Shown: one piece after another, positions 1-19,592 of the stretch | Layout: each line of letters opens with the position of its first letter | Numbering within the stretch: position 1 is the stretch's first letter | From: a virus | Virus record (IMG/VR): IMGVR_UViG_3300031466_000110 | Length of the DNA stretch: 22,811 bases | Direction: 5' to 3' (one strand) | Notes under the pieces: generated by a model | What the model saw: the letters and a program-made list of their open reading frames with translations, nothing else | What the model was told of the DNA's origin: nothing | Database searches by the model: none | Position numbers and translations under genes: made by a program

Positions 1-3000
1 CTTATCTGGCGGGGTAATCATACCATTCAGTACCATGATGAAGATCATGATAAAGAGCAGGAACAACAAGACCATCTTAAGCGCCGGAACCACGATGACA
101 TTCAGAATATCCGAAGCCAACAGAAGGAGTCCAGTGATGAAAGAGGTCTTTTTGACCACCCGAACATACAAGTCCTCATCAGACAACATCGGCTCGCCCG
201 TTGAATTCATAAGGATCAACCGCATAAAGGCATCATAGTTGAAGTTCTTCAACTCAAAACCCTGTGGGTACTGAATGGAACTTTCTCCAAGAAAACGAAT
301 CTCCGAGAACTCCTTATTAAAATTGAAAGTTGCCGACATCGCCGCCGCTGTAAGCAAAACATCATCGTCAAAGTCATAGTAGTTAATGAGATACATCATA
401 TCACGGTAGGTCTCTTTCAACACGTTTTGAATCTTTTGCTCCACCAACGTAAGATCAGATTCCTTAAAATACTTCGCATGCATATCCGCAGGGGAGAAGA
501 TCATCGGTCTACCGCTAATTTCATAGTACGATGGATTGATAGTGTCGTCCAAATAATAAGACTTACCAGCGGCTCGATAACTACCATGCGAGAAAGAAGT
601 CGAATAAAGCTGATCAACCCAAGGACTATACAAGAACCAAACCTTCTCCAGATTTGTATTGTGTTGCATCAGACTTTCATACTCTTGATACTCCTTAAGC
701 TTCCGTTCATAATCTGGGTCACTCGGATCTGGCATGGTCGGAGCGATAACGTTTGACATATCCTTGTAGTCCTTACCATACTTATTCACATAACGATAGA
801 CATAATCGTTACCCTGTTGCAAGTACGGAATGACATACGTGAAAAGACCTTCCAAATCCAAGAAGTCACGAAGCTGATTATTATACAGCTCACCCGTTTC
901 ACCTTTAACCCGGAAGATATTTTCATTCAACAAGTCGTTACGGAAATTCGTCCCCAATTGTCGGTTTGCCAAAGCACTGTAGAAGTAGTAGAAAGGACTT
1001 TCCGTAATCAATGCGAAGGCTCGGTTACGACTGTTATTGATGCTTCCAGAAAAACCTACCCCCGTGTCAACGCTGGAGTTAAAAATAGCATTATTGATAT
1101 CCTGACTGCTGAGGAACCAATAGCGATAAATCTCTACCTTTTCCTTCTCCGCTTGAGAACCATTTGTGTTCCAAAGCGGATCACCTTTGTTAATCGGAGC
1201 CACGCGAGCTACCCGTTGCTCAATTTCTGGGGAAAAAGTAAAGTTCACCTTTCCCAAAATTTTAGCAAAACGTTCATCAGGCAAACCCGCAAAACCATTA
1301 ACTTTCGACTCCAGTTCCGCAAGTACCCCCGCCTTTGACACGTTCTCGTCACGCATATCCTTGACCATGTTCTTTGCTTCAAGCGCTATCGTATTATAAG
1401 AACGATAAACATAAGTTGCCAAAGGATCGTTATAAACAAACTGATCTTGCGTGAGGAACGATGCAAAAATCCAGCGAAAGATACTCAGGTTAGAAGTGAT
1501 GTTTTTAGTGACCGTTGAAGTTCCGTTTATTTTCTTAAAGTAGTCATAGCGTTTCGGTGCCATCCACTTCAGCGTAACGCTAGGTGTGCTACCGTAAGTG
1601 TTTGTCATTTGTTGAGCCGCAACTTCAATATTAAACTCAAGCGGGTCACCTGTCTCCGCCGCCTTACTCAAACCACGAACACTTTGCTCATGCTGAACAA
1701 TCGCCCAGTAATTAAAGCGATCCGAGAAAATACGGTCAGACACACTGTTCGTAAGGTTAATAACCCCCGAAAGCAAGAACTGCGGTAAAAAGAGTAGAAA
1801 TGCCATCACAATGAAGGTCAATACCCCCTCCCGCAGGGAGCGCACGTTGACCGCAACCATCAAAATACACAAGATGAACGTCACAACCAACACGCAGAGG
1901 TAGACCAACATATAATCCTTCAAAAGCCATGCCGTCAACGGCAAATCCGTTAAACTCGGCGTGTTAATGAACCCCACGACTGAACCGTAAGAGTTGCCGC
2001 CACCTGCCGATACCGAGAAGTCCTTTCCGACCCAAGAACCGACAATGCTATGATGCGTCGAAATGATCCAGCTATCTTGCGTCGCTTTAATGATATTGTT
2101 ACGATATTGACTTTCTCCATCGCTTAACAACGAGTACATTTTGCGAAGCAAGTCCCGAGCCAACACTTCGTCCGTCATCTTATCCGATGCCACCGCTCCA
2201 GCAGAAGTGAACGCATCGGAGAAACGGAAACCACTACCCCCGGAAACATTGATGTTAATAGTCGGAAGATACTGGTTAGAGAACAGTAACTCCTGCTCGA
2301 TATTATCCTTCCCCGCACCGAGCAGACCCACCATGTACCCCCAATAAATCCCCACGAAGTAGTTCACTTCATTATAGATGGCACTTTCGAGCTTAAACTT
2401 CGAGTCGCTACCTTGATAAGAAGGAACCTCAGAACCCGCATTTACCCCTCGCAACGCTCCACGAATTGAGTTCGGTACCCCGAAGACCTCGTAGATAAAG
2501 AAATGCGCGATAAGGTTCCGCAACTCTTGTGTGGGCGGGTAGTTCATCGCACCTTTCTCCAACTGTTGATAACGCGAATACAAATCCCCGGAGAAATACC
2601 ACTCGGAGCCAAGAGACGTAAAGTAATGGTGTGACGCAACCGAACTCGAAGGAACCGCTACCCACGAACCGTCTGTCACCAACTGTCCAAGCAAGCTGTC
2701 TTCCTTTGTAAAGGAAGCCGAAACCACCCTTTTCTTCCCCGTCCACGGAATATCGAACAGGAACTTAAAATTATCCTTCAACACAACTTTTTCCGCACCA
2801 AGAGGTGTCGGTAAAAGGGAAGAACCGATAAATTTCGTAGTCGTGCCCTGCGAAAGAAACTTCGCCAACGACTGCAAGAGAGACGAGTAAGAAACCTGTG
2901 AAGGCGTAGAGCGCGTAGTTTCCCAACTCTTAAAACGACTATCGAACGTCAAAGTATTAAAGAAATCCCTAATATCCTGCCTTACAAGAGGTGGATCAGG

Positions 3001-4614
3001 ACGATGTGCTCCAGAATTAAAGTAATCAGGATCTTCCTTCAAACTCGTGTACCGATCCTTGAAGTTTGAAGTCAGAAATCCATCTTGTGCTTCCTGCGTG
3101 TACCCGCCTTCAGTCCAAAAACGACTCAAAAGCGTCATTAAAGGAGAGCTGGCATGCGAACCATTATAAAAAGCGAAAGAATCCAAATACTCACCCGAAG
3201 ATTCATCGAAGATCGCCTTAGTGAACAAACGTTGCTTAGAGAACAAACTCATCTCATCACTGATCTCCAACTCCCCACTAAGGCTTTGATATGGGTTATT
3301 GAAGTAATACATCTCATCCGCCAACTCATTGAGACGGAACGCCAAACTTTCTGCGAAATACTGCGACAAAGACTGCCGAGCATTAGTCGTAAAACCAGAA
3401 AGATTCGACTCCTCAAACGCTTTAGTAGAGAAATAGGAGTTCTCCTTTACGTTATAATCGAGGAACACGACTGCGTTAGACTCAGACTTCAAGGCTCCAG
3501 TCTCAGAGTTAACAAAGTCCTTAATATCATCCAACGTAAGGCTAGAACCATACCCCTTAAAGAGCCTGTCCGAATTAGCGATATTCGGAGACACCGAATA
3601 TACCCCATAAAGGGAAACCGAGTTGCTCAAGCTGACCTGAGAGTCGAAAGCCACGTTATAGTACGGAATAAACTTATTTGGGTTATTTGAAAGATCGCCA
3701 GCATTAAAATGCATGATCGTACCCATAACAAACGTATTGGCAACCGGGAACTTCATCGAATTATTATCCAGACTTTTGTCCCCACCAAACGTCACCGGGT
3801 TCAATGCCGCCGGAAGTACAAGGACAAGTTTATTGTAATCATGCTCCCCTTCTGGTCTACCCCAGATATTCCCAAAACCGTCAAGATGGAGCGATTCCAT
3901 CTTGCGAAGACCCTTTTCCTTCGACATGACCATTTCTGATGACAAACCAAACAAGACTTTCAACGCCGCCCGCGTTGCCTTGTCATTGAGATTCATCACC
4001 TTTACCCCAACACCATTTTTGTTGAGGTACAAGTAAGGGTCATACGCCTCTACCGTATTCGAACCATCTACTTTTTCAGAGCTGTTCGCACCATCCGAAC
4101 GCATTTGCACACTGGCGATTTTCTTCAAGAGCAGTTCACCAGAAAGCTTCGTACCTTTATTTTTCGCTTCATCCGCCGTCGGATAAAGCGCAAAGGTACC
4201 GTTAACCGCTTCATCATAAATCGCCTGATGGATCAAACCGTTCAATTCCAAAAAGACCGAAGACTGTGCCAAGTCGTCCCCAAAAAAGCGTTTACTCAGC
4301 GTTTCTGAAAGTTCCTTAGCTTGTTGAGTGTCATTCTTCAAAGACTCCAGCGTCGTACTCCAAGGAATAAAGAAGTTCGACAAGAACACACCCCAGATAC
4401 GGGCTTCCGCTTGCTTCAACCCCTTCGGGTTGATATTGTTCTTATCCCGGAAATACCCGATCATGGAGGTCGCCATTTGATTCGCACTATTACCCCCTGG
4501 TACTTCAGCCGCCGTTACCTTACTAATTGGAACAATAAGCGAAAAAAGCAAAGGTAACGTAAGAGAAAACAAGAGAAATAGTGACACGAATTTCTTATGT
4601 CTTAAAAATATCAT
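1..4614 (-). CDS. Giant (>=1538 aa, 3' end beyond the window) secreted/multi-pass membrane protein of unknown function; VirB6/TraG-like topology only
   Basis: ATG at 4614-4612 overlaps the TGA of the upstream gene (ATGA). Manual translation reads MIFLRHKKFVSLFLLFSLTLPLLFSLIVPISKVTA/AEVPGGNS... with no stop through ...GMITPPDK at position 1. It is absent from the ORF track, which fits a frame with no stop in the window. It has a signal peptide, a TM pair at ~1760-1920 (YMLVYLCVLVVTFILCILMVAV; GVLTFIVMAFLLFLPQFLL) and further hydrophobic helices at ~20-140. Confidence 0.9.
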   Translation of the reverse strand, partial: MIFLRHKKFVSLFLLFSLTLPLLFSLIVPISKVTAAEVPGGNSANQMATSMIGYFRDKNNINPKGLKQAEARIWGVFLSNFFIPWSTTLESLKNDTQQAKELSETLSKRFFGDDLAQSSVFLELNGLIHQAIYDEAVNGTFALYPTADEAKNKGTKLSGELLLKKIASVQMRSDGANSSEKVDGSNTVEAYDPYLYLNKNGVGVKVMNLNDKATRAALKVLFGLSSEMVMSKEKGLRKMESLHLDGFGNIWGRPEGEHDYNKLVLVLPAALNPVTFGGDKSLDNNSMKFPVANTFVMGTIMHFNAGDLSNNPNKFIPYYNVAFDSQVSLSNSVSLYGVYSVSPNIANSDRLFKGYGSSLTLDDIKDFVNSETGALKSESNAVVFLDYNVKENSYFSTKAFEESNLSGFTTNARQSLSQYFAESLAFRLNELADEMYYFNNPYQSLSGELEISDEMSLFSKQRLFTKAIFDESSGEYLDSFAFYNGSHASSPLMTLLSRFWTEGGYTQEAQDGFLTSNFKDRYTSLKEDPDYFNSGAHRPDPPLVRQDIRDFFNTLTFDSRFKSWETTRSTPSQVSYSSLLQSLAKFLSQGTTTKFIGSSLLPTPLGAEKVVLKDNFKFLFDIPWTGKKRVVSASFTKEDSLLGQLVTDGSWVAVPSSSVASHHYFTSLGSEWYFSGDLYSRYQQLEKGAMNYPPTQELRNLIAHFFIYEVFGVPNSIRGALRGVNAGSEVPSYQGSDSKFKLESAIYNEVNYFVGIYWGYMVGLLGAGKDNIEQELLFSNQYLPTININVSGGSGFRFSDAFTSAGAVASDKMTDEVLARDLLRKMYSLLSDGESQYRNNIIKATQDSWIISTHHSIVGSWVGKDFSVSAGGGNSYGSVVGFINTPSLTDLPLTAWLLKDYMLVYLCVLVVTFILCILMVAVNVRSLREGVLTFIVMAFLLFLPQFLLSGVINLTNSVSDRIFSDRFNYWAIVQHEQSVRGLSKAAETGDPLEFNIEVAAQQMTNTYGSTPSVTLKWMAPKRYDYFKKINGTSTVTKNITSNLSIFRWIFASFLTQDQFVYNDPLATYVYRSYNTIALEAKNMVKDMRDENVSKAGVLAELESKVNGFAGLPDERFAKILGKVNFTFSPEIEQRVARVAPINKGDPLWNTNGSQAEKEKVEIYRYWFLSSQDINNAIFNSSVDTGVGFSGSINNSRNRAFALITESPFYYFYSALANRQLGTNFRNDLLNENIFRVKGETGELYNNQLRDFLDLEGLFTYVIPYLQQGNDYVYRYVNKYGKDYKDMSNVIAPTMPDPSDPDYERKLKEYQEYESLMQHNTNLEKVWFLYSPWVDQLYSTSFSHGSYRAAGKSYYLDDTINPSYYEISGRPMIFSPADMHAKYFKESDLTLVEQKIQNVLKETYRDMMYLINYYDFDDDVLLTAAAMSATFNFNKEFSEIRFLGESSIQYPQGFELKNFNYDAFMRLILMNSTGEPMLSDEDLYVRVVKKTSFITGLLLLASDILNVIVVPALKMVLLFLLFIMIFIMVLNGMITPPDK

Positions 4615-6809
4615 ACAAACCCCACCCACTCCATGAAGGTATAGTAAATGTCCACAAAGAGACTGATTAACCAAGGCGCATTTGCACAGAGAACAGAAAG
4701 CGCGTAAAGCGACAAACTTATGACCACCATTCGACCGAAGGTTGCATAAGTTACACCACCTTCAGACGGATACTCGGAGTGGAAACGGAATGGACGAATT
4801 TCACCCGGAGAAACATTCAGTCTCCCGAAAGTCAAGAAACCAAGCAACTGGAAATCCCCAAAAAAGTTCGCTCGGTCAATCCAGTACACCATCAAAATCA
4901 AAGATGCATAGAAAGAAAGCAGAATACCAAAACTCAAAAGGATCACATAAATGACCCTCCCTAAGAAAGAGGTTTCTGTTTCCTCCAGCTCCACTCTAAT
5001 TTCCTGCAAACGATTCCACTCTGCGTAAGAGAGCGGAATTTCCTCAACTTCAAACAACCCCTTGATATGACTCAACAACTCTTCTGCGTATACCCCTGAC
5101 ATAGACTTGGCATGATCACTCCGCAACCAAGACATCAAATCCTGATTTTCAACATAGTAATTGTTATAAAACAGAACAAAACCACCATACCCCGTCTCGT
5201 CAGCATAGAACCCCGCACTGATCTCGAAAGACGGTGGACGCAAATCCTTAAAATCCGTATGGTTACTAGGGTCAGTGTGATCCGACTTGCCCGGAAGGAA
5301 AGCATAGTGCAACAAACGAGCGTCAGAATAACCCGTAATCGAATACACCGCAAAAATATCTTGGTTAGTTCCAATCAAGGTAGCCTTCGTCGCATAGTCA
5401 TTCCGAAAATGCAACTCACGCCCCGTAAAGTAAACCTTCCCCGTAGAAGGAATGTCCATACCCCCATCAATAATGGGAACCGTGTTACCTTCGGAATTCG
5501 TGGCTACCCCCGACGAGACATTCGGAACGAAAACCGCCTCCTTATACCGAAGCGGAACAACCGCACCAATAAACTTGGAGGTTCCTTCCGAAGGCTTTCC
5601 GTCATCATCAACTTCCAATTTCGTGATAACCAAACTATCCAAAACGATATTATACTTCGCATAGTCTCCGGCACTTTTGAAGTTCCCATTCTCATCTTCC
5701 GTATAAACCTCATTAGTAGTTACGCGAAGTCTCACCCCGTCAAAGAGTTTATACCCCGTCGTATCCTTCAAGAAGTAGGTTCCACGATTCGCCGCAAACT
5801 CAGAGAACTTAAACGGCACTGCCAACCGCAACGTAGTATCCACTGCATGGAGCGGAGAAACCTTAGTCTTACTGCGCTGAGACGTCACTTCTTTAATCCC
5901 ACCGCTATTCGTCCCCAGAACCGTACTTTGAATCTCCGACAGCGACTCACGACCCTCAGAACTGATAATAAAATCCCGATAATTTTCATTGACCGCAAAA
6001 GTAACGCGTTCTTTATTAGTCGTCGGCGTTGGAAGCCCTGTAGTCGTCTCCCAACTTGTTACCCCTTGCACTTCCGAGAACTTCATACGCCCCCGGAAGG
6101 GATGCATGAGGTAGTCCAACGAATAACTGATACTGGAATTCGCCTTAAGCTTCCCCTCCGACCCATCCGAAGGAAACTCAATCAAGTCCTTCAGATAAAC
6201 CTGACGAGAAGAAGGATAGAAAGTATAAACGTTAAACGCATGCGCCATCGACCCTACCGCAACAGACTGCTTCACCACGTCCGCATAGCGCTTAAACAAC
6301 TCTTGCGCCCTGGCGATTTCCTTTTGGTTTACATATTCATAATGTCCGCCACTGGCGACAAGTACCCCGTCCACTTTTTTATAATCTGCTACATAAATTT
6401 TCCCTTGAGGTACATAGACCTTCAAGAAGTCCGACCCATTACGCAAGTAGACGTAATGACCTTCAGTTGACTCCTTAAAACCACCAACATCTGAAGAAGT
6501 GATGGTGCTCCAAAGAGAACCCGCATAACCCCCAGAGAGATACTCGTAATCCAGACCCCCAACGACCGTAATCCCATTATGCAGAGTCCCTGTATCCAAT
6601 CCTTTTACCGAGTCAATAATGTTTTTCTGTAAATTCATAAGAAAAGAATCAAAGTCGACAGAAGACCCCGAAGCACCATACAGCACCAAATTTCCGTTAG
6701 CATCCACCGTGTAAATCGTATCGGCGTGAACATCCTTCACAAAGAAGAATGGGAGTGCCAACAAGAGCAACATAAAAGAAACACAGAGCTTTCGAGTTTG
6801 TATCAGCAT
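4611..6809 (-). CDS. 732-aa secreted protein with large extracellular domain and C-terminal membrane hairpin; unknown function
   Basis: GGAGGGGAG RBS; signal peptide ending VHA/D; long beta-rich, Gly/Ser/Thr/Tyr-rich domain; two C-terminal hydrophobic helices (VIYVILLSFGILLSFYASLILMVYW; MVVISLSLYALSVLCANAPWLISLF). Confidence 0.9.
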   Translation of the reverse strand: MLIQTRKLCVSFMLLLLALPFFFVKDVHADTIYTVDANGNLVLYGASGSSVDFDSFLMNLQKNIIDSVKGLDTGTLHNGITVVGGLDYEYLSGGYAGSLWSTITSSDVGGFKESTEGHYVYLRNGSDFLKVYVPQGKIYVADYKKVDGVLVASGGHYEYVNQKEIARAQELFKRYADVVKQSVAVGSMAHAFNVYTFYPSSRQVYLKDLIEFPSDGSEGKLKANSSISYSLDYLMHPFRGRMKFSEVQGVTSWETTTGLPTPTTNKERVTFAVNENYRDFIISSEGRESLSEIQSTVLGTNSGGIKEVTSQRSKTKVSPLHAVDTTLRLAVPFKFSEFAANRGTYFLKDTTGYKLFDGVRLRVTTNEVYTEDENGNFKSAGDYAKYNIVLDSLVITKLEVDDDGKPSEGTSKFIGAVVPLRYKEAVFVPNVSSGVATNSEGNTVPIIDGGMDIPSTGKVYFTGRELHFRNDYATKATLIGTNQDIFAVYSITGYSDARLLHYAFLPGKSDHTDPSNHTDFKDLRPPSFEISAGFYADETGYGGFVLFYNNYYVENQDLMSWLRSDHAKSMSGVYAEELLSHIKGLFEVEEIPLSYAEWNRLQEIRVELEETETSFLGRVIYVILLSFGILLSFYASLILMVYWIDRANFFGDFQLLGFLTFGRLNVSPGEIRPFRFHSEYPSEGGVTYATFGRMVVISLSLYALSVLCANAPWLISLFVDIYYTFMEWVGFV

Positions 6810-6833
6810 ACATTACTCCCCTCCATACCCCAA

Positions 6834-6863
6834 ATTATGTCAAAGTCCATAGAGTTCAAACAA
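6834..6863 (-). promoter_or_regulatory. Possible SigA-type promoter for the 732-aa and giant-protein genes
   Basis: Minus strand TTGTTT-N18-CATAAT with extended TGn, just after the 6879-6900 terminator and upstream of the RBS. Confidence 0.35.
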
Positions 6864-6871
6864 CCTCATAT

Positions 6872-6900
6872 AAATAGAAAAGGACGCTTTCGCGTCCTTT
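6872..6900 (-). terminator. Intrinsic terminator
   Basis: AAAGGACGC-GAAA-GCGTCCTTT followed by TCTATTT on the minus strand, 12 nt after the stop at 6913. Confidence 0.8.
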
Positions 6901-6912
6901 GAAGTACAGGAA

Positions 6913-7851
6913 TTACAGAGTGAAGCCGCTGAACAAACTCATGAAGCCCGAGAACAGTGCGCCGAGTCCACCGAAGACCAAGTACACCAAGCAGACCCCA
7001 ACTGCGATAATCGTAAGCGCCCGACGCTTGAAGTACATGATAACCGGGTTCTTATAACCCCCATCACCTGTTCCTGACTCCGTTTCATTGACGACCGATA
7101 CCGCGTCATAAGAAACAAACGGAATTTTGCCGCCCCGTTCATCACCCTTGCTTTGCATCTTATCGCGGAAAAACGGAATACCGATGAAGAACAAGTCCAT
7201 CGCCGTAAAGAAACCAAGCGAGAATACAACACCGATAGCGATAATACCCAAAATCACTCGCAAGAGCGGAAGGAACGGAGAAACCACGCGCATCGCACCA
7301 TAAACGTCAGCCGAGCTTGCATCCATCAGCATCGGAATGATCAAACGAGAAATTTCCGGGCTGGCATTATTCATGTCGTCGAACAGCTTTTGCTGAGTTT
7401 GCTTCGATACATCCGAGTTCTGCAGGTTTTTGATGAACTCGGCAGTGATATTCCGCTGATCCTCATCCCGCAAAGTTTTGAAGTTCTCCGGATGGAACTG
7501 GATCTTGTTAATGTTATAAGAAGGCTTAGTCGTACCCGGAGCGGTCGAAGCAGTACCCACTGCCGTAATAACAACTACCTCTTCACCCTTATGAATCGAA
7601 CTGTTTTTGGACTTCCCTTTAATGACGTACCCCGTCCCCGCTGATGTGGTATCCTTTTGTGCGATACCTTTTTCCTCCAGAACAGCGAAGTACCAACCCA
7701 TCGCCGTCTGATCAGTCGCCGGAATTGAGGTTTCCTTGGGCTTCTCATCGGCAAAAGCCAGCGTCGGAAGCAAAGACAACGCCAGTACCATCGCCAAAAG
7801 AAGCGACAAGACCCACCGACCGTACCCCTTTCGATAAATAGCTTGCTCCAT
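6913..7851 (-). CDS. 312-aa signal-peptide plus membrane-hairpin protein (pilin-like paralogue A)
   Basis: GGGAGGGAG RBS; signal peptide ending AFA/D; C-terminal TM-AMDLFFIGIPFFR...VSYDAVSVVNE...YFKRR-TM, the same motif order as 9354..10250. Confidence 0.9.
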   Translation of the reverse strand: MEQAIYRKGYGRWVLSLLLAMVLALSLLPTLAFADEKPKETSIPATDQTAMGWYFAVLEEKGIAQKDTTSAGTGYVIKGKSKNSSIHKGEEVVVITAVGTASTAPGTTKPSYNINKIQFHPENFKTLRDEDQRNITAEFIKNLQNSDVSKQTQQKLFDDMNNASPEISRLIIPMLMDASSADVYGAMRVVSPFLPLLRVILGIIAIGVVFSLGFFTAMDLFFIGIPFFRDKMQSKGDERGGKIPFVSYDAVSVVNETESGTGDGGYKNPVIMYFKRRALTIIAVGVCLVYLVFGGLGALFSGFMSLFSGFTL

Positions 7852-7895
7852 TGGTTCTCCCTCCCAGAAGTTTCCGACTTTTTCTTACAGTCAAA

Positions 7896-8546
7896 CTAAA
7901 AACCAAATCTACTGGTGACCCAACTTACAATTAAGTCCCATAAACTGAACAAAGTATGATCAAAGAAACTTAAAAGTAGGTTGATCGCCGCCAGTGCGCT
8001 GATAATGTTACACAAGTAGAACATGAATGTTTCCCAAGGTCCGCCTGTTGCAAAGAAGCTAGTCTTAGGTACAAGTCGAATCTTAAAACCGGGGTACAAA
8101 TGAATTCCCTTCGGATTCAACGCATCAAGTGCCAAGTGACTCGCAAGACCAAGCTCAAAACCCACTAATAACATTCGTATAATCAAACCTTCTATACTAT
8201 TGAACGCCGCAAAACCAAAGACCTGCTCCCAGTATAAGATCAAGGTATGCAGAAGAAAGATAAAACCCCCAGTGACCAACAAGGAGTGCGTTTGCCAACT
8301 TCGATGTTTCGGGCGGGTTAAATGCAACAGGAAATGCACAATTTTATTAACGGGCGTTTTCGCCCCAACACTCTCCCAGTGATGATCCAAATCGGGTAAA
8401 GTAGATGCCCATTGAGAGACAGGGTACATAATCGACAACTGGAGAAGTGGATGAATTTCCGGGGTCAACATCCCCTTCATTCGCATATATTCAAAACCAA
8501 CCATCATAAAGGCAACTCCGCCCGCACGATGTGTTTTACCTAACAA
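7896..8546 (-). CDS. YdjM-like (LexA-binding, inner-membrane-associated) putative metal-dependent hydrolase
   Basis: TTG start after AAGGGGGT; family motifs THRAGG, LPDLDH, HRSWQTHSL and SHLALDALNPKG; several TM helices. Confidence 0.85.
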   Translation of the reverse strand: MLGKTHRAGGVAFMMVGFEYMRMKGMLTPEIHPLLQLSIMYPVSQWASTLPDLDHHWESVGAKTPVNKIVHFLLHLTRPKHRSWQTHSLLVTGGFIFLLHTLILYWEQVFGFAAFNSIEGLIIRMLLVGFELGLASHLALDALNPKGIHLYPGFKIRLVPKTSFFATGGPWETFMFYLCNIISALAAINLLLSFFDHTLFSLWDLIVSWVTSRFGF

Positions 8547-8602
8547 ATAAACACCCCCTTCAAGCCAGCATCTTAGTGTACCCCGTATGCATTATAACTA
8601 AC

Positions 8603-9037
8603 CTACAAATCTTCGTCAATTTCCACCTCTGCGAGACTATCGCTGTCGACAGAAGAAGTGCCCCCTGAATTTCCCGAGTTGCCAGCATCCGAACCTTCCA
8701 CAACCAAGTCCAGATCATCGTCCTCTTCATCATCCGGGGCAACCATACGCGACATGTCGAATGTCCGCAAATGCGCGGGAGCCGGAATAACCTTCAAACG
8801 CTCCCGCAACGCCGAAGAAACCCGACCTCGAGGATAAATCATCCCGGTAATAGAGTCCCGATAAGGTGTGATAGTCGTAAGACCATCAATAACCACCCGT
8901 TCGCCCGCCTCCAAGTCCTGTCGAAGCATCCGATTGTCTGCTTTCAAAATTTCCTCAACCAATGTGTACGACACCCGCAACTGTTTAGCGATGCGACGAG
9001 CGCGGTTACTAATGTTGCGCTTCATATGCAGACCCAT
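8603..9037 (-). CDS. HU/IHF-like DNA-binding protein with shortened arm and acidic C-terminal tail
   Basis: RARRIAKQLRVSYTLVEEILK...LEAGERVVIDGLTTITP...VSSALRERLK follows the HU helix-helix/G-x-x-V-x-I-x-G pattern; GTGAGGTG RBS; D/E-rich tail. Confidence 0.7.
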   Translation of the reverse strand: MGLHMKRNISNRARRIAKQLRVSYTLVEEILKADNRMLRQDLEAGERVVIDGLTTITPYRDSITGMIYPRGRVSSALRERLKVIPAPAHLRTFDMSRMVAPDDEEDDDLDLVVEGSDAGNSGNSGGTSSVDSDSLAEVEIDEDL

Positions 9038-9053
9038 GACTACACCTCACTTA

Positions 9054-9338
9054 CTAAATAGCGACTTCACGTTCCGCGAAGACGTACTTATTCGCATCCA
9101 CTTGCGTGACCACCAACCAGCTAAAGGCTTCATCCGCGATCACGTTCGTGAATTCAGTCAAAACTTTTGGCGAAACTTCCAACATAATGCGATCATAGGA
9201 GGAAAGGTACTGGTTAAGGAGTTGCTGTAGTTCCAATTTCAAGCGGTACTCCACCAACTTATTACCCTTGGCTTTTTCCGCAAGTTTGGCTTCCTTGCGA
9301 CTCCTCCAATACTTAACCGTATTCAAGTTCTTAAACAT
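9054..9338 (-). CDS. 94-aa hypothetical cytoplasmic protein
   Basis: GAGGGGT RBS; tight 15-16 nt spacing to both neighbours; normal globular composition. Confidence 0.85.
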   Translation of the reverse strand: MFKNLNTVKYWRSRKEAKLAEKAKGNKLVEYRLKLELQQLLNQYLSSYDRIMLEVSPKVLTEFTNVIADEAFSWLVVTQVDANKYVFAEREVAI

Positions 9339-9353
9339 AACCAGTACCCCTCA

Positions 9354-10250
9354 TCACAGTCTGATCATGCCGGAGAGCTTATCCATGACCCACTCACCGA
9401 AGTAAATACCGATATCGGTGAACAACGTACTCATGAATAACACCAGCGACATCCCCAAGCAAACAAGGAAGATCACGCGACGCTTCATGTAATTGACCAT
9501 CATCATGCGAGAAGTCATGGAAGGTTGCTGACCGCCAGCGGCTCCGCCTCCAAAACTACCCCCATAACCGCCGCCATAACCCATACCCATGCCGCCTATC
9601 GCGCCGCCACCAGCCCCTTGTTGCGACTGCTGGTACTCCTGCAGGACATGCAGGGCTTCATCCGACACCAACTGCCACGAACGCCCGCCCGAAGACTGCA
9701 CTCCTCCACCATAACCGCTATAGCCGCCATGATAACCACCACCGTAGCCCATTCCCATACCGCCCATGCCGCTATTCGCCTGTTGCTGACCGCGTACCAA
9801 AAGCGGACGAATGAACGGAACCGCCAAATACAGCATATCCAACGCAAAGATCAGGGTCAAAACCGAACCCAAAATAGCGAAAATCGCCAACGTGATTCGA
9901 TTGATCACCCGAGCGCCCGGTTCAACGAAACTACGACTCTTTTCAATATCCTCGTCAGTCAAGACCGTCGTATTGAACAGGTCTCGAACCGACTGCGCCG
10001 GATCGTTACTTCCCTGCGACTGCTCAACCTGACTCGGAGCAGTTGGAGTCACAGTAGATTGTTGCGGTTGTTGTACCGGAGCTTGCTGAGGCGTTTGCGC
10101 AGGTTGCTGTTGCGGAGCGGGAGTAGGATCAGCCCCGATTCCGTTCAGATCAGTTGCATGCGCGGTCATAGTCATAAAAGACAGTGCCAGAAGCAAAGCG
10201 GTCATAAAAAGACCCAAATTCCGTAACACTCTTGGCGAGAATGCCGTCAT
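9354..10250 (-). CDS. 298-aa signal-peptide plus membrane-hairpin protein with Gly/Met/Tyr low-complexity loops (pilin-like paralogue B)
   Basis: AGGGGGT RBS; signal peptide ending AHA/T; P/Q-rich linker; TM-ALDMLYLAVPFIR...VSDEALHVLQE...YMKRR-TM. Confidence 0.9.
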   Translation of the reverse strand: MTAFSPRVLRNLGLFMTALLLALSFMTMTAHATDLNGIGADPTPAPQQQPAQTPQQAPVQQPQQSTVTPTAPSQVEQSQGSNDPAQSVRDLFNTTVLTDEDIEKSRSFVEPGARVINRITLAIFAILGSVLTLIFALDMLYLAVPFIRPLLVRGQQQANSGMGGMGMGYGGGYHGGYSGYGGGVQSSGGRSWQLVSDEALHVLQEYQQSQQGAGGGAIGGMGMGYGGGYGGSFGGGAAGGQQPSMTSRMMMVNYMKRRVIFLVCLGMSLVLFMSTLFTDIGIYFGEWVMDKLSGMIRL

Positions 10251-10391: not shown

Positions 10392-11852
10392 TTAAACACC
10401 GGGGAAGCCCGAAAATCCAGACCTTTCAAGCCGCTCATCACGAACCGAAGGTGCCGATTGGTTAGGAACTTGACGAGTAGGGTCAACCTTCATACCTTGG
10501 AAGGTATCCGCAAGCTGATCACCACCAACAAGTTGAGTTCCCTGCTTAATGAACTGTTCGAACTCCGCTTGCGACATAGTTGTCCTAAGCTGGTGTAGAC
10601 GCTCACCGTAAGTCTGCTCTTCACCCGGAGTGACATTCTCCAAAATCATTTTCGCCATATTTTTTGCTTGCTCCGAACGCTGACGAGTGCGCTTTTGCAG
10701 AGTAGTCCCACCATCCTTAACGGGTTGGGGAGACATCGACAGCTCAGGCTCTACCGTTGCACGAAGCCCCATATAACCCAAAAGGATAAGACGCACTTCG
10801 TGATCCCCAGTAAACTTAATATCCAGCAAAGTTGCAAGAGTATTTCCCAAATCAGCAGTCGAGAACTGTGAAAAGAGCTTAACGTAATTCTCAATTTCCG
10901 ACTCGTCCAATGACTCGGTATTTACCCCACTGTAAATATACAAACCACGCATGGTGAAAGCGAGAAGGTCATCCACAAACTGCCCCAAATCCATTGTCGC
11001 CTTGATGCTAGCGATGAAGGTGATATACCCCTTTATGTCAATTTGAGGTGCCAACAAGTACTTATAGAAGTCAAAAAAGTACTTTGTCGACGTCATATCA
11101 AGGACTTCCCGCGTAACAGAGTACGTCACCTTTCCCGCTTGACGTACAACCCGCTCCAAGGAAGTCAGTACCTTACGTGGTACAAAATCCCCGGCGATAC
11201 AAACCAGATTGAGGGCTTTTGTGTCAAATTCCACACCTTCTGTTTTGCAGACGCGAATCAACAACCCCATGAGATCCTGCAACTCCGGCTTTTTGACCTT
11301 GAATGTGTACTGACAGCGGGAGAGAATCGTGTCCAAGAGCTTCTCCGGGTTCGTGGTACAAAGGATCATAAGTACCTTTTCCGCAGGCTCTTCAAGGTTC
11401 TTAAGCAAACGGTTCTGCGCAGTTGCTGTCATCATATGACACTCGTCAAGAATATAGACCTTCCAGTTCCCCGCCAAATCGGGCTGAGACGCATCCTCAA
11501 GCAAACGGTCAATATCTTGACGCTTGTTGCTATCAGTAACGTCGATTTCCTGCACGTTCATGAGGTTACCCGCATCCCCAGTTTCGATAAAGTAATCCAT
11601 CTCCCGGCAGTAATAACACTCGCCGCAAGACCCTTTAACCGGATCGCGGTTTTCACAAACATATTCCTTCGCCATAAGACGCGCCATCGTAGTCTTACCG
11701 CAACCTGCGGGTCCGGTATACAGTAGTACCTGCGGACGCACCGATGCCGAAACCGCATTCAAACTGCGCTCCTTAACACGGTCATTCCCTACATACTCCG
11801 CCAAAGTCCGAGGACGATATTTTCTATGAAATGGCAACGTAAGTTCCGCCAA
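10392..11852 (-). CDS. dnaX: DNA polymerase III gamma/tau (clamp-loader AAA+ ATPase) homologue
   Basis: KYRP N-terminal motif, Walker A GPAGCGKTT, four-Cys zinc module (C..CGECYYC), Walker B ILDECH, NRLLKNLEEP, SRC motif. Start re-assigned to TTG at 11852, 8 nt after GGAGG. Confidence 0.92.
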   Translation of the reverse strand: MAELTLPFHRKYRPRTLAEYVGNDRVKERSLNAVSASVRPQVLLYTGPAGCGKTTMARLMAKEYVCENRDPVKGSCGECYYCREMDYFIETGDAGNLMNVQEIDVTDSNKRQDIDRLLEDASQPDLAGNWKVYILDECHMMTATAQNRLLKNLEEPAEKVLMILCTTNPEKLLDTILSRCQYTFKVKKPELQDLMGLLIRVCKTEGVEFDTKALNLVCIAGDFVPRKVLTSLERVVRQAGKVTYSVTREVLDMTSTKYFFDFYKYLLAPQIDIKGYITFIASIKATMDLGQFVDDLLAFTMRGLYIYSGVNTESLDESEIENYVKLFSQFSTADLGNTLATLLDIKFTGDHEVRLILLGYMGLRATVEPELSMSPQPVKDGGTTLQKRTRQRSEQAKNMAKMILENVTPGEEQTYGERLHQLRTTMSQAEFEQFIKQGTQLVGGDQLADTFQGMKVDPTRQVPNQSAPSVRDERLERSGFSGFPGV

Positions 11853-11892
11853 AAAGGACACCTCCAAAAAATACCCCGTAAATGGTCATTAA

Positions 11893-13048: not shown

Positions 13049-14146
13049 TCAGGAAGCCGAACGCCGTGCCGCCAACTCCATTTCGGTGATATCATCGAAG
13101 TGACGCGGCGGCTCAACAACGAAATGCTCATCCTCCAGCCGTTGCACATTGACCGAGATCATATAGCCGTTACCCCGCATCGAGAAGAAGTCGTGATCCT
13201 TCGTTTGCGTCGAGATGCCATTGAGAATGATCGGGTTGACCTGCGCGGCATCGATATTGAACGGAGCTTCGATCCCGAGCAGACTGTGCGCACGGTCAGC
13301 ATTGTACTCGACGTACTTGACCACTTCGTCCGTAAGCCCAATCGGGTCGTAAACGCGCTGGGTGTACTCAATCTCATTCCGATGCAGATCGTGGAACAGT
13401 TCATGGAACTCGTTCAGCGTCGCCTCCCGCTCAGAATCGGACATCGAAGCGAGAACTTCCTGTGCGAGTACCCCCGTGTACAGACCGTGAAGGCTTTCGT
13501 CCCGAAGGATCAGTTCAATGATTTCACCGCTGGCAGTCATCATACTCTTACCGGAAAGGTACAGTGGATAGAAGAAACCGCTGTAGAACAGGTAGCTCTC
13601 CAAGAGAACCGAAGCCGCCAACGTCAGGAAATGATCGCGGGGCGTCAAAGTGCCGTTGACCTTATTGATGAGTCCACGCATATAATACTGGTTAATGCGT
13701 TGAACCTTGTAGTTAAGGTTCGGCTGATTTTCACCCCACTCGTGCAGAGCCGAAATTTCATCCGAAGTAAGCAGAGTGTTGAAAATAGCGCTATACGACT
13801 CCGCATGGATACCCTCCATCGCACCCATGAAGGAAATGAGCGTCTTACGCTGATCGCTCTCCGTCACGAAGCCGACAGCGGGCATGCCACTGTTCATTTG
13901 TTTAGTGTCAAGCCCGGTCAGCCCAACCAAGACCTGCGAATACGCCGTCCGCTGAGCCGGAGTTAAATCCGCCCAAACGAGCTTATCCTCCAACACCGGG
14001 AACTCCCGAGACACCCAAAACTGTGCGATGTTCTGCAACCAAATATCCAACGTGAAACCGTCGTCTGGCTTATTCCAGTTAACCGCCTTGAAATAAGTGT
14101 TGGTGATTTGACGACGCACTAACTCTTCTTGCGTGATCAGTTCCAA
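13049..14146 (-). CDS. nrdF: Class Ib ribonucleotide reductase beta subunit
   Basis: KAVNWN, QFW; metal ligands and radical Tyr intact: LTGLDT, MEGIHAESY, LESYLFYSGF, RDESLHG; HDFFS..GNGY. TTG start after GGTGAGGGGG. Confidence 0.96.
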   Translation of the reverse strand: MELITQEELVRRQITNTYFKAVNWNKPDDGFTLDIWLQNIAQFWVSREFPVLEDKLVWADLTPAQRTAYSQVLVGLTGLDTKQMNSGMPAVGFVTESDQRKTLISFMGAMEGIHAESYSAIFNTLLTSDEISALHEWGENQPNLNYKVQRINQYYMRGLINKVNGTLTPRDHFLTLAASVLLESYLFYSGFFYPLYLSGKSMMTASGEIIELILRDESLHGLYTGVLAQEVLASMSDSEREATLNEFHELFHDLHRNEIEYTQRVYDPIGLTDEVVKYVEYNADRAHSLLGIEAPFNIDAAQVNPIILNGISTQTKDHDFFSMRGNGYMISVNVQRLEDEHFVVEPPRHFDDITEMELAARRSAS

Positions 14147-14166
14147 GATTCAATACCCCCTCACCA

Positions 14167-16302
14167 TTAGACAGCGCAACTGACGCAAAGCTCATCTTCA
14201 ATGTTCTTACGCCGATTCCGAGTGTAATACAAAGACTTCAAACCGAGCTTGTTAGCATAAACATAATAGCTTGCCAACTCCGCCGTGCTAATATCCTGCG
14301 GAACATACAATGTCGTGCTGACCCCTTGATCCACGTGTTCTTGAATAACCGCGATAAGATCAAGCAGTTTCCGCATGTCCATATTGTACGCCGACTTGAA
14401 GTAGAATTGATTTTGCGGCGTAAGATGCGGAGCCGGATAATACGTCGTGGACTTGGCATACGAACGCTTGGTGATTACTTCCTGAATCGGCATGACCGAA
14501 CTCGTTGCGTTTTGCACATACGAAATGGACTGCGTCGGTGCGATAGCCAAACGGTAAGCGTTGTACAGCCCTTGCATTTTAACCTTCTGCGCCAGCTTCT
14601 TCCAATCCTCCGGCGTCGGGATATGCATACCTTCGAAAAGCTTGGCAACCTTTTCCGTCTTCGGGCGATAGTCATTGATGAAATATTTCTCGAAGTACTC
14701 GCCCGTATAATACGTGGAAAGCTCGAAACCATCGAAGGATTTACCCCGATCCTTAGCGACGTCAGACGACGCGTCGAGCGAATAATAGTTCATCATCATG
14801 AAGAAGGTACGAGCGAAATCCAACGCCTCAAAGGATTCGTAAGCGATATGATTCTTCGCCAAGAACCCATGCAAGTCCATCGCACCCAAACCGACCGAAT
14901 GCAGTTCACGATTGGCTTTGCGTACCCCCGGAGCGTTAACAATATCCGACGCATCAGATACGTCCGAAAGCAGGAACATAGCAACGCGCACCGTATCCGC
15001 CAACGACTTGGATTCCATGACATTGGTGATGTTGAGCGACGCAAGGACGCAAGAAATATCACGACGAATGATGTCCTCGACGTTATAATCGGTGATTTCC
15101 GACACTTCTTGCAACTGCATGATCTCGGTGCAGAGATTGGTCATAAGGATACGCCCAACCCGATGCAGAGCATGACGCTTGTTCGCATTGGTGATATTGA
15201 AAATATACGGGTACCCCGACTGAATTTGAATTTGCGCGATCTTTACAAGAAAATCGCGGGCATTCATAATTTTCTTCTTCCGAATGCGCTCGTCGTTGAC
15301 AAAGGTGTCGTAGTAAACATCAAAGTCAACGTCCGTCATGCGCATACCGTAATATTTGCGAATATCGTAAGGACTGAAAGCGTAGAATTCTTGATTCGCT
15401 TCCGCCAGATCGTAAAGCTTCTTCGGAATGATTACCCCGATGGAGAGGTGCTTAAGCAAAGCATTCTGGTCAGCCGTAACCTTTTTCGTATCAAGGAACG
15501 GGATAATGTCCAAATGGAAGCAGTTAAGGTACCCCGCTCCAGCTCCTTTGCGGAGTCCGCCTTGGTCGTAATAGAAAAACTTCTGCTCAGCTTGTTTAGC
15601 GAGTCCGACTACCCCTTTAGCTGTGCCTTTACGCCCGTTTACCGGATCGCCGGAAGCCCGAATGTTCGAAAGGTCGAAAGCTACTCCACCGCCAATACGG
15701 GAAAGTTGAGCCATACAACCGAGCGTGTACTCGATGGAGTTGGTTGTGTCATCGAAAGTCAACAAGAAACAGGAAACGCGTTCACCACCCCTAGCCTTAC
15801 CCGAATTCGAGTACGCCGGGGTTGCAGGTTGCAGACGACGAGTACCAATCTCGCGAATGTACTCCATCGCGCGAGCTTTGTTACCCCGAGCGATGGAAAG
15901 GGCAGTAATGGCGTTCCGAAGATGGTAATCCTCAAGGAACCACTGCCGATCATCCGAACGCAGGAGATACTCTTCCCACAGCTTGGATACCTGCGTGAAG
16001 GAGCAGAAACGCGAATCGATACTGCGAGCTTGATGCAGAGCTTCAATGATGAAATGATCGGAGTAGTATTTCCGAATGTCCTCGTAATACCCATTCTCGA
16101 TCAACCACACCACGCGCTCGAAATCGGAGTTGAACTTGACCGTTTTTGCGTCGACATAACGCAGATACTCCTCCATCGCTTCGCGGTCTTTATCGAGCTG
16201 AAAAAACCCGTCCGCGCCGCGTTGAGTGATCATGTTGTTCAACTCAATGAAACGGAAGTCCGTTTCGTTGACTGCAGGAGCTTCAGAAATTTGCGACGAC
16301 AA
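14167..16302 (-). CDS. nrdE: Class Ib ribonucleotide reductase alpha subunit
   Basis: FIELNN N-terminus without ATP cone, QPATP, VSCFLL, GGGV, SGYPY, TNLCTEI, LAIAPTQSISY, SLYYTR, C-terminal CVSC. Start re-assigned to TTG at 16302 after AAGGAGGT. Confidence 0.97.
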   Translation of the reverse strand: MSSQISEAPAVNETDFRFIELNNMITQRGADGFFQLDKDREAMEEYLRYVDAKTVKFNSDFERVVWLIENGYYEDIRKYYSDHFIIEALHQARSIDSRFCSFTQVSKLWEEYLLRSDDRQWFLEDYHLRNAITALSIARGNKARAMEYIREIGTRRLQPATPAYSNSGKARGGERVSCFLLTFDDTTNSIEYTLGCMAQLSRIGGGVAFDLSNIRASGDPVNGRKGTAKGVVGLAKQAEQKFFYYDQGGLRKGAGAGYLNCFHLDIIPFLDTKKVTADQNALLKHLSIGVIIPKKLYDLAEANQEFYAFSPYDIRKYYGMRMTDVDFDVYYDTFVNDERIRKKKIMNARDFLVKIAQIQIQSGYPYIFNITNANKRHALHRVGRILMTNLCTEIMQLQEVSEITDYNVEDIIRRDISCVLASLNITNVMESKSLADTVRVAMFLLSDVSDASDIVNAPGVRKANRELHSVGLGAMDLHGFLAKNHIAYESFEALDFARTFFMMMNYYSLDASSDVAKDRGKSFDGFELSTYYTGEYFEKYFINDYRPKTEKVAKLFEGMHIPTPEDWKKLAQKVKMQGLYNAYRLAIAPTQSISYVQNATSSVMPIQEVITKRSYAKSTTYYPAPHLTPQNQFYFKSAYNMDMRKLLDLIAVIQEHVDQGVSTTLYVPQDISTAELASYYVYANKLGLKSLYYTRNRRKNIEDELCVSCAV

Positions 16303-16648
16303 GAGATTCAACCTCCTTATGGAAACGCTCAACATCATAGAGCGTTCCGTTTAATTCAAACTTGGAAACTACCCTTACATGATAAAAGTCTGCGATCCGA
16401 TCAGCGGCTTTACCAAAGTTCGCACCCCAGTTACGATTACCGCTGGACGCTACCCCCATCAGACGCTGATGGTTATTCCGCAGAAACTCAGCAGTGCTTA
16501 CCGGAACCTGCCCAAAACCCGTGGTATAGGTAACCAAAACGAATGGCTCCTCAATCACCAACTCCGGGGTGATTTTAACGGCGGGCAAATCCAACTTCTT
16601 AATAAACCGCGCCACATTTCCTGTACGAGAATCAAAAGCAACCAGCAA
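16283..16648 (-). CDS. nrdI: NrdI flavodoxin-like protein for class Ib RNR cofactor assembly
   Basis: FDSRTGNVARF, LVTYTTGFGQVP, GVASSGNRNWG, KFELNGT. Start re-assigned to TTG at 16648, 9 nt after GGGAGG. Confidence 0.96.
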   Translation of the reverse strand: MLVAFDSRTGNVARFIKKLDLPAVKITPELVIEEPFVLVTYTTGFGQVPVSTAEFLRNNHQRLMGVASSGNRNWGANFGKAADRIADFYHVRVVSKFELNGTLYDVERFHKEVESLVVANF

Positions 16649-16767
16649 CGACAGCAACCTCCCATCAAGTAATGATCCTACAACCGCCCGACCCACAAAA
16701 GCCGGGAGCAAACGGTTGCTCCGTACCCCCACCGCCCCTAGCGGCGGGGCGTGATGAAGCGGTGATC

Positions 16768-16773: not shown

Positions 16774-17037
16774 ACTTTACCTCAGAAATAATTTGGGGAG
16801 ATTGGGGTCTGGGAGAAAATTTTTCTGAGTCGAACCGGGGGTCATAAAATTCTCTCAGAAAAAGGGAAAAGTCGATGGAAATTTAGAGGTTAGCGGTGAA
16901 AAGAAAAGTCCAAGTCTGAAAACCAGTTCTAAAGTAAGATTTTTGAAATCCTCGCTAAAGATTGTTTCATTCAACAGGAAAATAATAACGGGAATCGGCA
17001 AGATGTTTCCGATTCCCACAATGAATGATTCAAAGTA

Positions 17038-17655: not shown

Positions 17656-17744
17656 CGAGACTCCCTCCCCTCACAAAAAGCATCTTAACCCTTATACGCT
17701 GGGTACACTTAAATAGTTGCGAAAATACCGGAAAATTGGCATAC

Positions 17745-17776
17745 GAAAAGGGAGGATCGAAATTCGATCCTCCCTT
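17745..17776 (-). terminator. Intrinsic terminator
   Basis: Perfect inverted repeat AAGGGAGGATCGAA-T-TTCGATCCTCCCTT followed by TTC, 15 nt after the stop at 17792. Confidence 0.85.
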
Positions 17777-17791
17777 GCCGTAGTCGCCGGA

Positions 17792-19501: not shown

Positions 19502-19549
19502 ATACTCAACTCCTTTTAAGGGCTGTGTACTAATTTAACCTATTTTCCC

Positions 19550-19581: not shown

Positions 19582-19592
19582 AATGCGTCAAA

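Follow-up and report, generated by a model that had tools for sequence, protein, structure and literature searches.

The 22,811 nucleotides of IMG/VR virus record IMGVR_UViG_3300031466_000110 that were analysed here (the whole stretch is called the window below) carry an unbroken series of minus-strand genes from position 1 to position 22811, and seven of these genes lie within positions 1 to 10250. The seven genes probably represent the promoter-proximal, envelope-protein half of a conjugative DNA-transfer locus of the type found in the Bacillus thuringiensis plasmid pXO16, carried by a plasmid-like element of at least 270 kb. An earlier note, made from the sequence alone, had presented them as an unrecognised and novel system, namely a divergent apparatus for DNA transfer or for a surface filament. 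The novelty does not hold: as judged by sequence comparison, the locus is a distant member of the pXO16-type family and not a new kind of machine, corresponding to that part of pXO16 in which the published tip conjugation locus lies. The suggestion of DNA transfer is strengthened by two ATPase genes found downstream and by the collinearity with pXO16, while the variant of it that foresaw a filament made of pilins loses ground.

The genes and signals of the block, together with the gene just upstream of it, are arranged as follows.

1..4614, minus strand: gene of the giant membrane protein, first 1538 codons, leaving the window at its left edge (open reading frame, ORF)
4611..6809, minus strand: gene of the protein of 732 amino acids (aa) (ORF)
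6879..6900, minus strand: terminator-like hairpin between the genes of the 312-aa and 732-aa proteins, with a 9 bp stem, 5 G-C pairs, and a T-run (pattern scan, consensus match only)
6913..7851, minus strand: gene of the 312-aa protein, paralogue b (ORF)
7896..8546, minus strand: gene of a YdjM-family membrane metal-dependent hydrolase (PF04307)
8591..8619, minus strand: promoter-like site ahead of the YdjM gene, TTGACG, 17 nt spacer, TATAAT, with 11 matches out of 12 (pattern scan, consensus match only)
8603..9037, minus strand: gene of a 144-aa HU/IHF-like protein with an acidic C-terminal tail (PF00216 at the family level)
9054..9338, minus strand: gene of a 94-aa soluble protein (ORF; position conserved)
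9354..10250, minus strand: gene of the 298-aa protein, paralogue a (ORF)
10392..11867, minus strand: gene of a clamp-loader-like AAA+ ATPase, DNA_pol3_delta2, just upstream of the seven-gene block (PF13177, E = 1.6e-33)

pXO16 is experimentally conjugative and has a 25-kb tip locus of 16 coding sequences (CDSs) (PMC9673590), in which two ATPases and a hydrolase, TipB, are listed among the essential conjugative functions (PMC9673590; PMC6199540). Its transfer is described as distantly similar to that of type IV secretion systems (T4SSs), as involving single-stranded DNA, and as comparable to that of pCW3 (PMC6199540). Transfer takes place within minutes, plasmids lacking mob and oriT are mobilised, and chromosomal segments of up to 791 kb are moved (PMC9673590, PMC6199540). 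Of the elements considered here, pXO16 is the only one with known self-transfer that depends on the locus (PMC9673590). No relaxase or oriT is known for it (PMC9673590), nor are almost any of its structural parts (PMC9673590, PMC6199540); the plasmid has been treated as nearly unique.

When the locus of the window element was compared with pXO16 by BLASTP, a homologue was obtained for 11 of its 23 genes, all of them collinear. In pXO16 the order (protein sizes in aa) is AAA ATPase 431, 254, 92, 122, metal-dependent hydrolase 235, 292, 269, 1834, and 710, followed by 200, 207, 445, 306, 412, 678, 120, 72, and, further along, FtsK-SpoIIIE 776. Collinearity extends from the clamp-loader-like ATPase to the FtsK-type ATPase and includes homologues of the giant protein, paralogues a and b, the YdjM protein, a protein with two transmembrane (TM) helices (342 aa in the window element, 445 aa in pXO16), and both ATPases. 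The clamp-loader-like ATPase is 42% identical to the AAA ATPase of pXO16, and the giant protein matches the 1834-aa protein with 29% identity over about 1000 aa (blastp, E = 1.7e-99). Both are giant elements with all genes co-oriented and with the same strand-polar word, GGGGTA. In contrast, the host of the window element is an uncultured Bacillota of gut/digester type and not Bacillus, and the identities are 23-42%. Moreover, the third paralogue of pXO16, of about 270 aa, is replaced in the window by the unrelated-looking 732-aa protein of the same topology, the protein in the hydrolase position has no detectable similarity to the NlpC/P60 protein of pXO16, and the five small membrane-protein or lipoprotein genes differ. 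Judging from its size, its number of CDSs, and the position of the hydrolase, the tip locus would start at the gene of the 1834-aa protein (perhaps TipA), and the NlpC/P60 protein would be TipB.

Nucleotide searches with the whole window in phage and plasmid collections found nothing. The 732-aa gene was found, by exact-protein match, on a 169-kb JGI contig and on others, and the cluster of the 312-aa protein is represented on a contig of 272,853 bp; the window is part of a plasmid-like element that measures at least 270 kb and comes from an uncultured member of the Bacillota. The giant gene is followed in this element by the gene of a 745-aa protein that has TM helices near its N-terminus, by genes of five small proteins, all of which possess either a single N-terminal TM helix or a lipobox, and by that of the 342-aa protein with two TM helices. 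Further downstream are soluble proteins of 781 and 497 aa, a 687-aa ATPase, and then the FtsK-type ATPase. Both ATPase genes lie 11-16 kb past the left edge of the window, on a contig that also carries window genes, and the two ATPases of pXO16 are likewise encoded shortly after its giant gene. The VirB4-like ATPase (L011:15856-17919, 687 aa) is 40% identical to the 678-aa protein of pXO16 (E = 8.7e-144), which itself gives a weak AAA_10/DUF87 signal. Its Pfam matches are DUF87 (E = 7.5e-7) and AAA_10 (E = 0.031), and the single PDB match of its profile at E ≤ 1 is Thermoanaerobacter VirB4 (4AG5, E = 0.0028). The best NCBIfam matches are two models of VirB4-type conjugation ATPases, VirB4_plasma (5.9e-9) and conju_CD1110 (1.6e-7), and both are below their cut-offs (NF045975, 34 bits; NF045971, 30 bits). 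The FtsK-type ATPase (L011:18076-20439, about 800-810 aa) is 38% identical (E = 1e-89) to that of pXO16, the 776-aa protein, which is the sole FtsK_SpoIIIE match of that plasmid. It harbors an FtsK_SpoIIIE domain (PF01580, E = 2e-12) and two N-terminal TM helices at 162-213, and it matches FtsK, EssC, and a "DNA translocase coupling protein."

The same arrangement can be found in further elements, obtained either by scans with an alignment of the conserved part of the giant protein (L016-L020) or by exhaustive protein search (L021, L022). Of these, L017 is an IMG/VR element of 180 kb, complete and bounded by terminal repeats, L020 is a contig of 269 kb, and L018 is a close relative. Between the clamp-loader-like ATPase, which holds the same position in all four, and the giant gene, L017, L020, L021, and L022 have the gene order of the window; L018, whose upstream end is missing, has it from the YdjM gene on. 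In the two that reach far enough downstream, L017 and L020, it holds up to the VirB4-like gene. The conserved order thus reads clamp-loader-like ATPase, paralogue a, 94-aa protein, HU-like protein, YdjM protein, paralogue b, third paralogue or 732-aa variant, and giant protein, and then a protein of about 700 aa in the hydrolase position, small membrane-anchored proteins and lipoproteins, two soluble proteins, the VirB4-like ATPase, and the FtsK-SpoIIIE-type ATPase. Since this order is kept in at least seven elements, including the window element and pXO16, at protein identities of 21-47%, the genes can be considered real. A replicon devoid of any transfer ATPase, or a cluster that is not conserved, was what the earlier note regarded as fatal to its proposal; instead, both ATPases are on the same contig, and the block is conserved as a unit, collinear in seven large elements, among them the conjugative pXO16.

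Two sub-lineages can be distinguished by the gene that precedes the giant gene. In the pXO16 type this is the third paralogue of about 270 aa, and in the window type (window element, L018, and L022) it is a protein of 650-750 aa that has the same topology as the third paralogue and is not detectably related to it. The third paralogue is duplicated in L017, one copy having 470 aa. In L022, a gene for a GGDEF-domain protein (L022:1986-3218) is inserted just upstream of the clamp-loader-like ATPase gene.

The gene that follows the giant gene appears, wherever its product is readable, to encode a membrane-anchored peptidoglycan hydrolase of about 700 aa with interchangeable catalytic domains. In pXO16 (710 aa, a weak match, E = 7e-4) and in L021 the domain is NlpC/P60, and in L022 it is M23. 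In the window element, the 745-aa protein (L001:17767-20004) has an N-terminal TM region, and its top three PDB matches are NlpC/P60 enzymes of the Spr/MepS type, with weak E-values of 0.06-0.16. It is homologous (E = 5.8e-6) to the L022 counterpart, which contains Peptidase_M23 (E = 2e-17). Direct homology of the 745-aa protein with the NlpC/P60 protein of pXO16 was considered and rejected (hhalign probability 1.8%). Across L021:14785-16842, L022:17556-19739, L008:23365-25497, and L001:17767-20004, the catalytic domain swaps between NlpC/P60, Peptidase_M23, and an unrecognised domain, with size and TM anchor being kept.

Regarding the window proteins themselves, those of 298, 312, 732, and 1835 aa each have an N-terminal hydrophobic segment with an AxA-type end and later membrane helices, according to a Kyte-Doolittle scan and a reading of the N-termini; signal-peptide cleavage is deduced from the same hydropathy and N-terminal reading. 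The four co-oriented signal-peptide membrane proteins announced by the earlier note are thus recovered from the ORFs, the hydropathy scan, and the putative N-terminal sites. Likewise, the absence of surface-anchoring and secretion motifs that it reported was found again: a regular-expression check of the four proteins gave no lipobox, prepilin motif, or C-terminal LPxTG, the sole near match being an internal LPLTA of the giant protein, and a Pfam scan of the window proteins gave no WXG100, SLH, or TrbC match. No Pfam or NCBIfam match was obtained for the giant, 732-, 298-, and 94-aa proteins, nor any PHROG match for the giant and 732-aa proteins. The stop codon of the 732-aa gene and the ATG of the giant gene overlap in an ATGA at window positions 4611-4614, as read directly from the sequence, and by this overlap the two genes are translationally coupled, as had been proposed.

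At full length (L001:12196-17703), the giant protein has 1835 aa. Its layout comprises a signal peptide with the N-terminal site VTAA followed by E, an outer domain of about 850 aa, a TM hairpin at 893-955 that holds the basic loop NVRSLRE, a second outer domain of about 535 aa, a cluster of TM helices at 1490-1619, partly past the window edge, and a basic C-terminal tail that is past the window. The AlphaFold2 model of residues 751-1660 (40 sequences; mean predicted local distance difference test score, pLDDT, 76; predicted template modelling score, pTM, 0.76) is confident and mostly helical, with a TM hairpin at about 892-964, an alpha/beta region of about 535 residues, and three very long C-terminal helices at about 1492-1531, 1536-1569, and 1589-1649. 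The most economical topology predicted for the protein is N-terminus outside, five TM helices, C-terminus inside, and a huge outer loop between TM2 and TM3, because of the cleavage deduced for the signal peptide, the basic NVRSLRE loop, the very basic C-terminal tail, and the modelled helices. The LPLTA at residue 891 (window about 1942-1956, minus strand) stands directly before the TM hairpin and its basic loop, an arrangement that resembles a sortase sorting signal set within the protein. The consensus of the 40 sequences retains D-L-P-x-T-x-W at this place, and pXO16 has MQWTD. It is probably not a sortase site, given its position in the middle of the protein and the MQWTD of pXO16.

Against PLSDB, a tblastn search with the giant protein matched only the ten copies of pXO16, the 350-kb plasmid of B. 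thuringiensis israelensis (29% identity, residues 751-1645, E = 6e-90). An exhaustive HMMER search with residues 751-1660 yielded at least 484 clusters at 50% identity, 323 of them at E < 1e-30; nearly all of the best 150 matches have 1500-2800 aa, a handful being shorter and probably fragments. Fold searches were made with the whole 910-residue model, which exceeds the 400 residues recommended for such searches. Foldseek against PDB gave no E-value below 0.09, the structure search of the Atlas gave a TM-score of at most 0.19 by query, and the top Z of the VIA full-library search, 7.6, fell on unrelated helical bundles and is regarded as noise. With TrwI/VirB6 of R388 (7o3v_F), VIA gave a Z of 6.1 over 202 of 261 residues with a root mean square deviation of 5.2 Å, a value within the noise range for helical models.

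The 732-aa protein, which occupies the slot of the third paralogue of about 270 aa in pXO16-type elements, has a putative site VHA followed by D, an outer domain of about 580 aa, and, towards its C-terminus, a pair of TM helices spanning 613-645 and 689-721. Homologues were found in close relatives only, namely in L018 (653 aa, 30% identity), in L022 (746 aa, 24%, E = 1.3e-26), and in P0167 (46%); a look-up in the ESM Atlas gave nothing usable. Its inclusion in the family of the paralogues of about 300 aa as a third member was rejected for the present (hhalign probability 0.7%).

The 298-aa protein has a putative site AHA followed by T, an outer segment rich in Pro and Gln, and helices at about 113-152 and 255-282 that are separated by a Gly/Met-rich loop of about 100 aa. 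In the 312-aa protein, with a putative site AFA followed by D, a small alpha/beta outer domain precedes helices at 186-228 and 274-307; the first long TM helix ends in D-L-x-F-I-x-I-P-x-x-R and is followed by a loop with FVSxDA, then by YFKRR and the second long helix. The module shared by the paralogues consists of a long TM helix whose last residues are D-[LIVM]-x-[FY]-[LIVM]-x-[LIVM]-P-x-x-R, a loop that contains [VI]-S-x-E-A, the motif Y-[FL]-K-[RK]-R, and a second long helix. The Asp and Pro at the end of TM1 are invariant and the loop between the helices is conserved, while the outer domains vary strongly. Direct BLASTP between the two proteins is weak (E = 4e-4), and the profiles of their orthologues align with an hhalign probability of 98.8% (E = 6.6e-17); by this profile comparison they are true paralogues, as the earlier note had stated. 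The 298-aa protein is an orthologue of PX16 of pXO16 (E = 1.3e-8). Orthologues of the 312-aa protein are PX20 (E = 6e-14) and PX21 (E = 2e-13) of pXO16, and others occur in L017, L018, L020, L021, and L022. In Pfam and NCBIfam, the 312-aa protein gave only NF053514, below threshold (E = 0.0035; 17.6 bits, the cut-off being 40). Its AlphaFold2 model (21 sequences; pLDDT 77, pTM 0.45) shows a small alpha/beta outer domain, a helix of 60 residues, two short ones, and, at the C-terminus, a helix of 43 residues. When a complex of the two paralogues was predicted from their membrane modules, the score was 0.00, which speaks neither for nor against binding.

Among the smaller genes, the assignment to YdjM made in the earlier note is secure, as PF04307 is matched above its cut-off (E = 2e-12, 47.4 bits against 29). 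The protein has 216 aa from a TTG start, whereas the gene calls on the contigs begin further downstream and give 203 aa; an orthologue can be found at the same position in every related element (E = 7e-24 for pXO16). The HU-like assignment proposed for the 144-aa protein needs more nuance. Taken alone, the protein is below the PF00216 cut-off (E = 0.054, 14.2 bits against 22.4) and the call is weak; at the family level it is credible, because all four orthologues match PF00216 (best E = 6.9e-6) and the top PDB matches of the family profile are TF1, HU, and IHF (E = 0.007-0.5). The gene position is conserved as well. In L020 (L020:4865-5356) and L017 (L017:3747-4223) the HU-like protein has about 160 aa and apparently consists of two tandem HU-like halves, where the window element and pXO16 have one. 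A protein similar in size to the 94-aa protein is present at the same position in pXO16 (92 aa), L017 (93), L020 (97), L021 (92), and L022 (90).

In Firmicute T4SSs such as Tcp of C. perfringens pCW3 and those of the Tn916/ICEBs1 type, an FtsK/SpoIIIE-type coupling ATPase takes the place of VirD4. The locus of the window element resembles these systems in combining an FtsK-type ATPase with N-terminal TM helices, a VirB4-like ATPase, a putative membrane-anchored peptidoglycan hydrolase, a large polytopic protein in the VirB6 position, and several small bitopic membrane proteins. It differs from them in that no window protein has a Pfam or NCBIfam match to the TcpC/E/H, ConB/G, or Orf13-15 families, that TcpH has less than half the size of the giant protein, and that the relaxase families PF03432 and PF02486 were not found in two complete relatives. 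The three paralogous two-helix proteins, the YdjM protein, and the HU-like protein are not known to have a counterpart there. VirB6, as reportedly described by Jakubowski et al. in 2004, has an outer N-terminus, a TM hairpin, a large outer loop, three more TM helices, and an inner C-terminus. The topology predicted for the giant protein fits this one, which is a lead and not a test; compared with VirB6/TrwI (PDB 7O3V), it has no sequence similarity, is about six times larger, and possesses two big outer domains. For pXO16 itself, the named analogue is pCW3 (PMC6199540).

If the seven genes belong to a pXO16-type transfer locus, the FtsK-type ATPase would be the coupling or translocation motor, as in FtsK-type Firmicute systems (pCW3 Tcp), and the VirB4-like ATPase would energise assembly, with the hydrolase opening the peptidoglycan. 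The giant protein, in the place of VirB6, might form a membrane channel or scaffold whose outer domains (about 850 and 535 aa) would traverse the thick wall. Around the giant protein, the paralogues with signal peptide and two helices, two or three in number, could assemble as small membrane subunits, their loop being on the cytoplasmic side. The YdjM hydrolase may be an accessory in envelope remodelling, and the HU-like DNA bender one in DNA processing or compaction.

Several points weigh against assigning the block to such a locus. The part of the seven genes in transfer and their individual roles are read from synteny and topology, and the inclusion of the giant gene or of its six upstream neighbours in the tip locus is likewise read from size, CDS count, and hydrolase position. 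The VirB4 and hydrolase calls for the window element are below curated cut-offs; the relaxase families PF03432 and PF02486, the only ones searched for, are neither in pXO16 nor in the complete 180-kb relative; and the fold searches with the giant and 312-aa proteins produced no supporting match. L016 and L019 carry the giant gene without the other genes of the block. In L016 ([Clostridium] fimetarium DSM 9179, NZ_FOJI01000014.1), a 1543-aa homologue, 38% identical to the giant protein of pXO16, is encoded beside a type I restriction-modification system, and a search of the [Clostridium] fimetarium genome with the VirB4-like query found nothing. The giant protein can therefore occur outside the pXO16-type block. 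In addition, the block abuts the clamp-loader-like ATPase and the ribonucleotide reductase genes NrdIEF, so the genes of the 298-aa, 94-aa, HU-like, YdjM, and 312-aa proteins could belong to another module, and the terminator-like hairpin and the promoter-like site split the block.

These last observations lead to the serious rival, according to which the transfer machine begins with the giant gene and comprises only this gene and those that follow it, while the six preceding genes would be a separate, linked module for envelope or maintenance functions. Possible roles of such a module are surface or entry exclusion, membrane tethering of the giant replicon near its replication genes, or cell-wall remodelling. 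This explanation is on the whole unlikely, with a chance of being right that is nonetheless appreciable. Besides the direct contact with the clamp-loader-like ATPase and NrdIEF genes, the tip region of pXO16 is said to be "inside the replication region" (PMC6199540, Fig. 7 legend), and if TipB is both the second tip gene and the NlpC/P60 protein, the giant gene would be the first of the published locus and the six would lie outside it. The hairpin after the 312-aa gene and the promoter-like site before the YdjM gene would suit separate units, and outer domains that vary as strongly as those of the paralogues are expected of exclusion or recognition proteins. However, seven elements with identities of only 21-47% have an unbroken order between paralogue a and the giant gene, the 732-aa gene is translationally coupled to the giant gene, and four signal-peptide membrane proteins of which three share the hairpin architecture of the giant fourth suggest a common assembly.

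Very little can be said for the paralogues of about 300 aa being pilin-like subunits, extracted from the membrane after cleavage and polymerised into a conjugative fibre as VirB2/TraA are, which was the analogy drawn in the earlier note. Like VirB2/TrbC pilins, each paralogue has a signal peptide followed by two long hydrophobic helices; several paralogues are present per element, and in pXO16 matings viewed by scanning electron microscopy, aggregating cells were linked by "connections" (PMC6199540). The proteins are, however, about three times the length of VirB2 (about 300 aa against 100-120), with an outer domain of about 150 aa, and their helices are separated by a conserved loop of 45-100 aa with motifs of its own instead of a short basic turn. 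Neither the 298-aa nor the 312-aa protein matches PF04956 (TrbC/VirB2) at E below 0.1, the fold searches with the 312-aa model returned only generic helical hairpins (Z ≤ 6.5), and Gram-positive conjugation systems are generally considered to be devoid of pili (PMC6199540). It is very improbable that the locus is instead a system for protein secretion similar to type VII, or a module of phage descent encoding virion or injection proteins of a phage-plasmid. The best NCBIfam matches of the FtsK-type ATPase are indeed EssC/EccC models (E = 1.4e-15), but the score with the EssC model is 56 bits where the cut-off is 778, and the match covers the one ATPase domain that is present; nor was there any FHA or WXG100 match in the proteins scanned. 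A phage origin could be suspected from the listing of one relative in IMG/VR as a viral genome with terminal repeats, from the "phage-like nature" proposed for pXO16 since all its CDSs are co-oriented (PMC6199540), and from the genes for ribonucleotide reductase and clamp loader, which are common in jumbo phages. On the other side, none of 17 proteins has a PHROG match, and neither TerL nor an HK97 capsid family was detected in pXO16 or in the complete 180-kb relative. The VirB4-like ATPase stands against both forms of this explanation, and pXO16 transfers by conjugation, no plaques having been seen (PMC6199540).

Upstream of the block, the window contains a complete class Ib ribonucleotide reductase set (13049-16732, 3-6 kb from the block), with NrdI of 149 aa, NrdE of 723 aa, and NrdF of 365 aa, the NrdI and NrdE genes overlapping by 56 bases. 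From 16971 to 22811 there are six more minus-strand ORFs (205, 257, 125, 207, 326, and at least 497 aa) without Pfam match; those of 125 and 207 aa were outside the PHROG scan. Longer plus-strand ORFs at 17717-18673 and 20079-21293 overlap minus-strand ORFs, which makes the gene calls uncertain there.

The hexamer GGGGTA occurs 60 times in the window, 57 times on the minus (coding) strand, against 7.2 expected. Relatives of FtsK/SpoIIIE read strand-polar words, such as KOPS and SRS, or the clt repeats in the case of Streptomyces TraB. By analogy, GGGGTA could orient DNA translocation during transfer, the coupling ATPase of the element being of the FtsK/SpoIIIE type; an FtsK gamma domain was not detected in this ATPase by Pfam scan.

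If the block is the envelope half of a pXO16-type machine, what is gained is comparative information and a candidate list of parts, the kind of system being already known. This half would then be a conserved block common to giant elements of uncultured Firmicutes. The comparison singles out candidates in pXO16, namely the three paralogues with the invariant Asp/Pro motif, the YdjM protein, the HU-like protein, and the 1834-aa protein, and provides conserved positions in them. As a speculation of low probability, the envelope core of the pXO16 type (giant five-TM protein, paralogues, and YdjM protein) may replace the VirB2/3/6/8-type parts and have no counterpart in described T4SSs, with an FtsK-type motor feeding the DNA and with the HU-like bender and GGGGTA perhaps standing in for relaxase and oriT. 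Were this true, the DNA-transfer machines of Gram-positive bacteria would include a further class with an architecture of its own, present on hundreds of giant plasmids of gut and digester Firmicutes.

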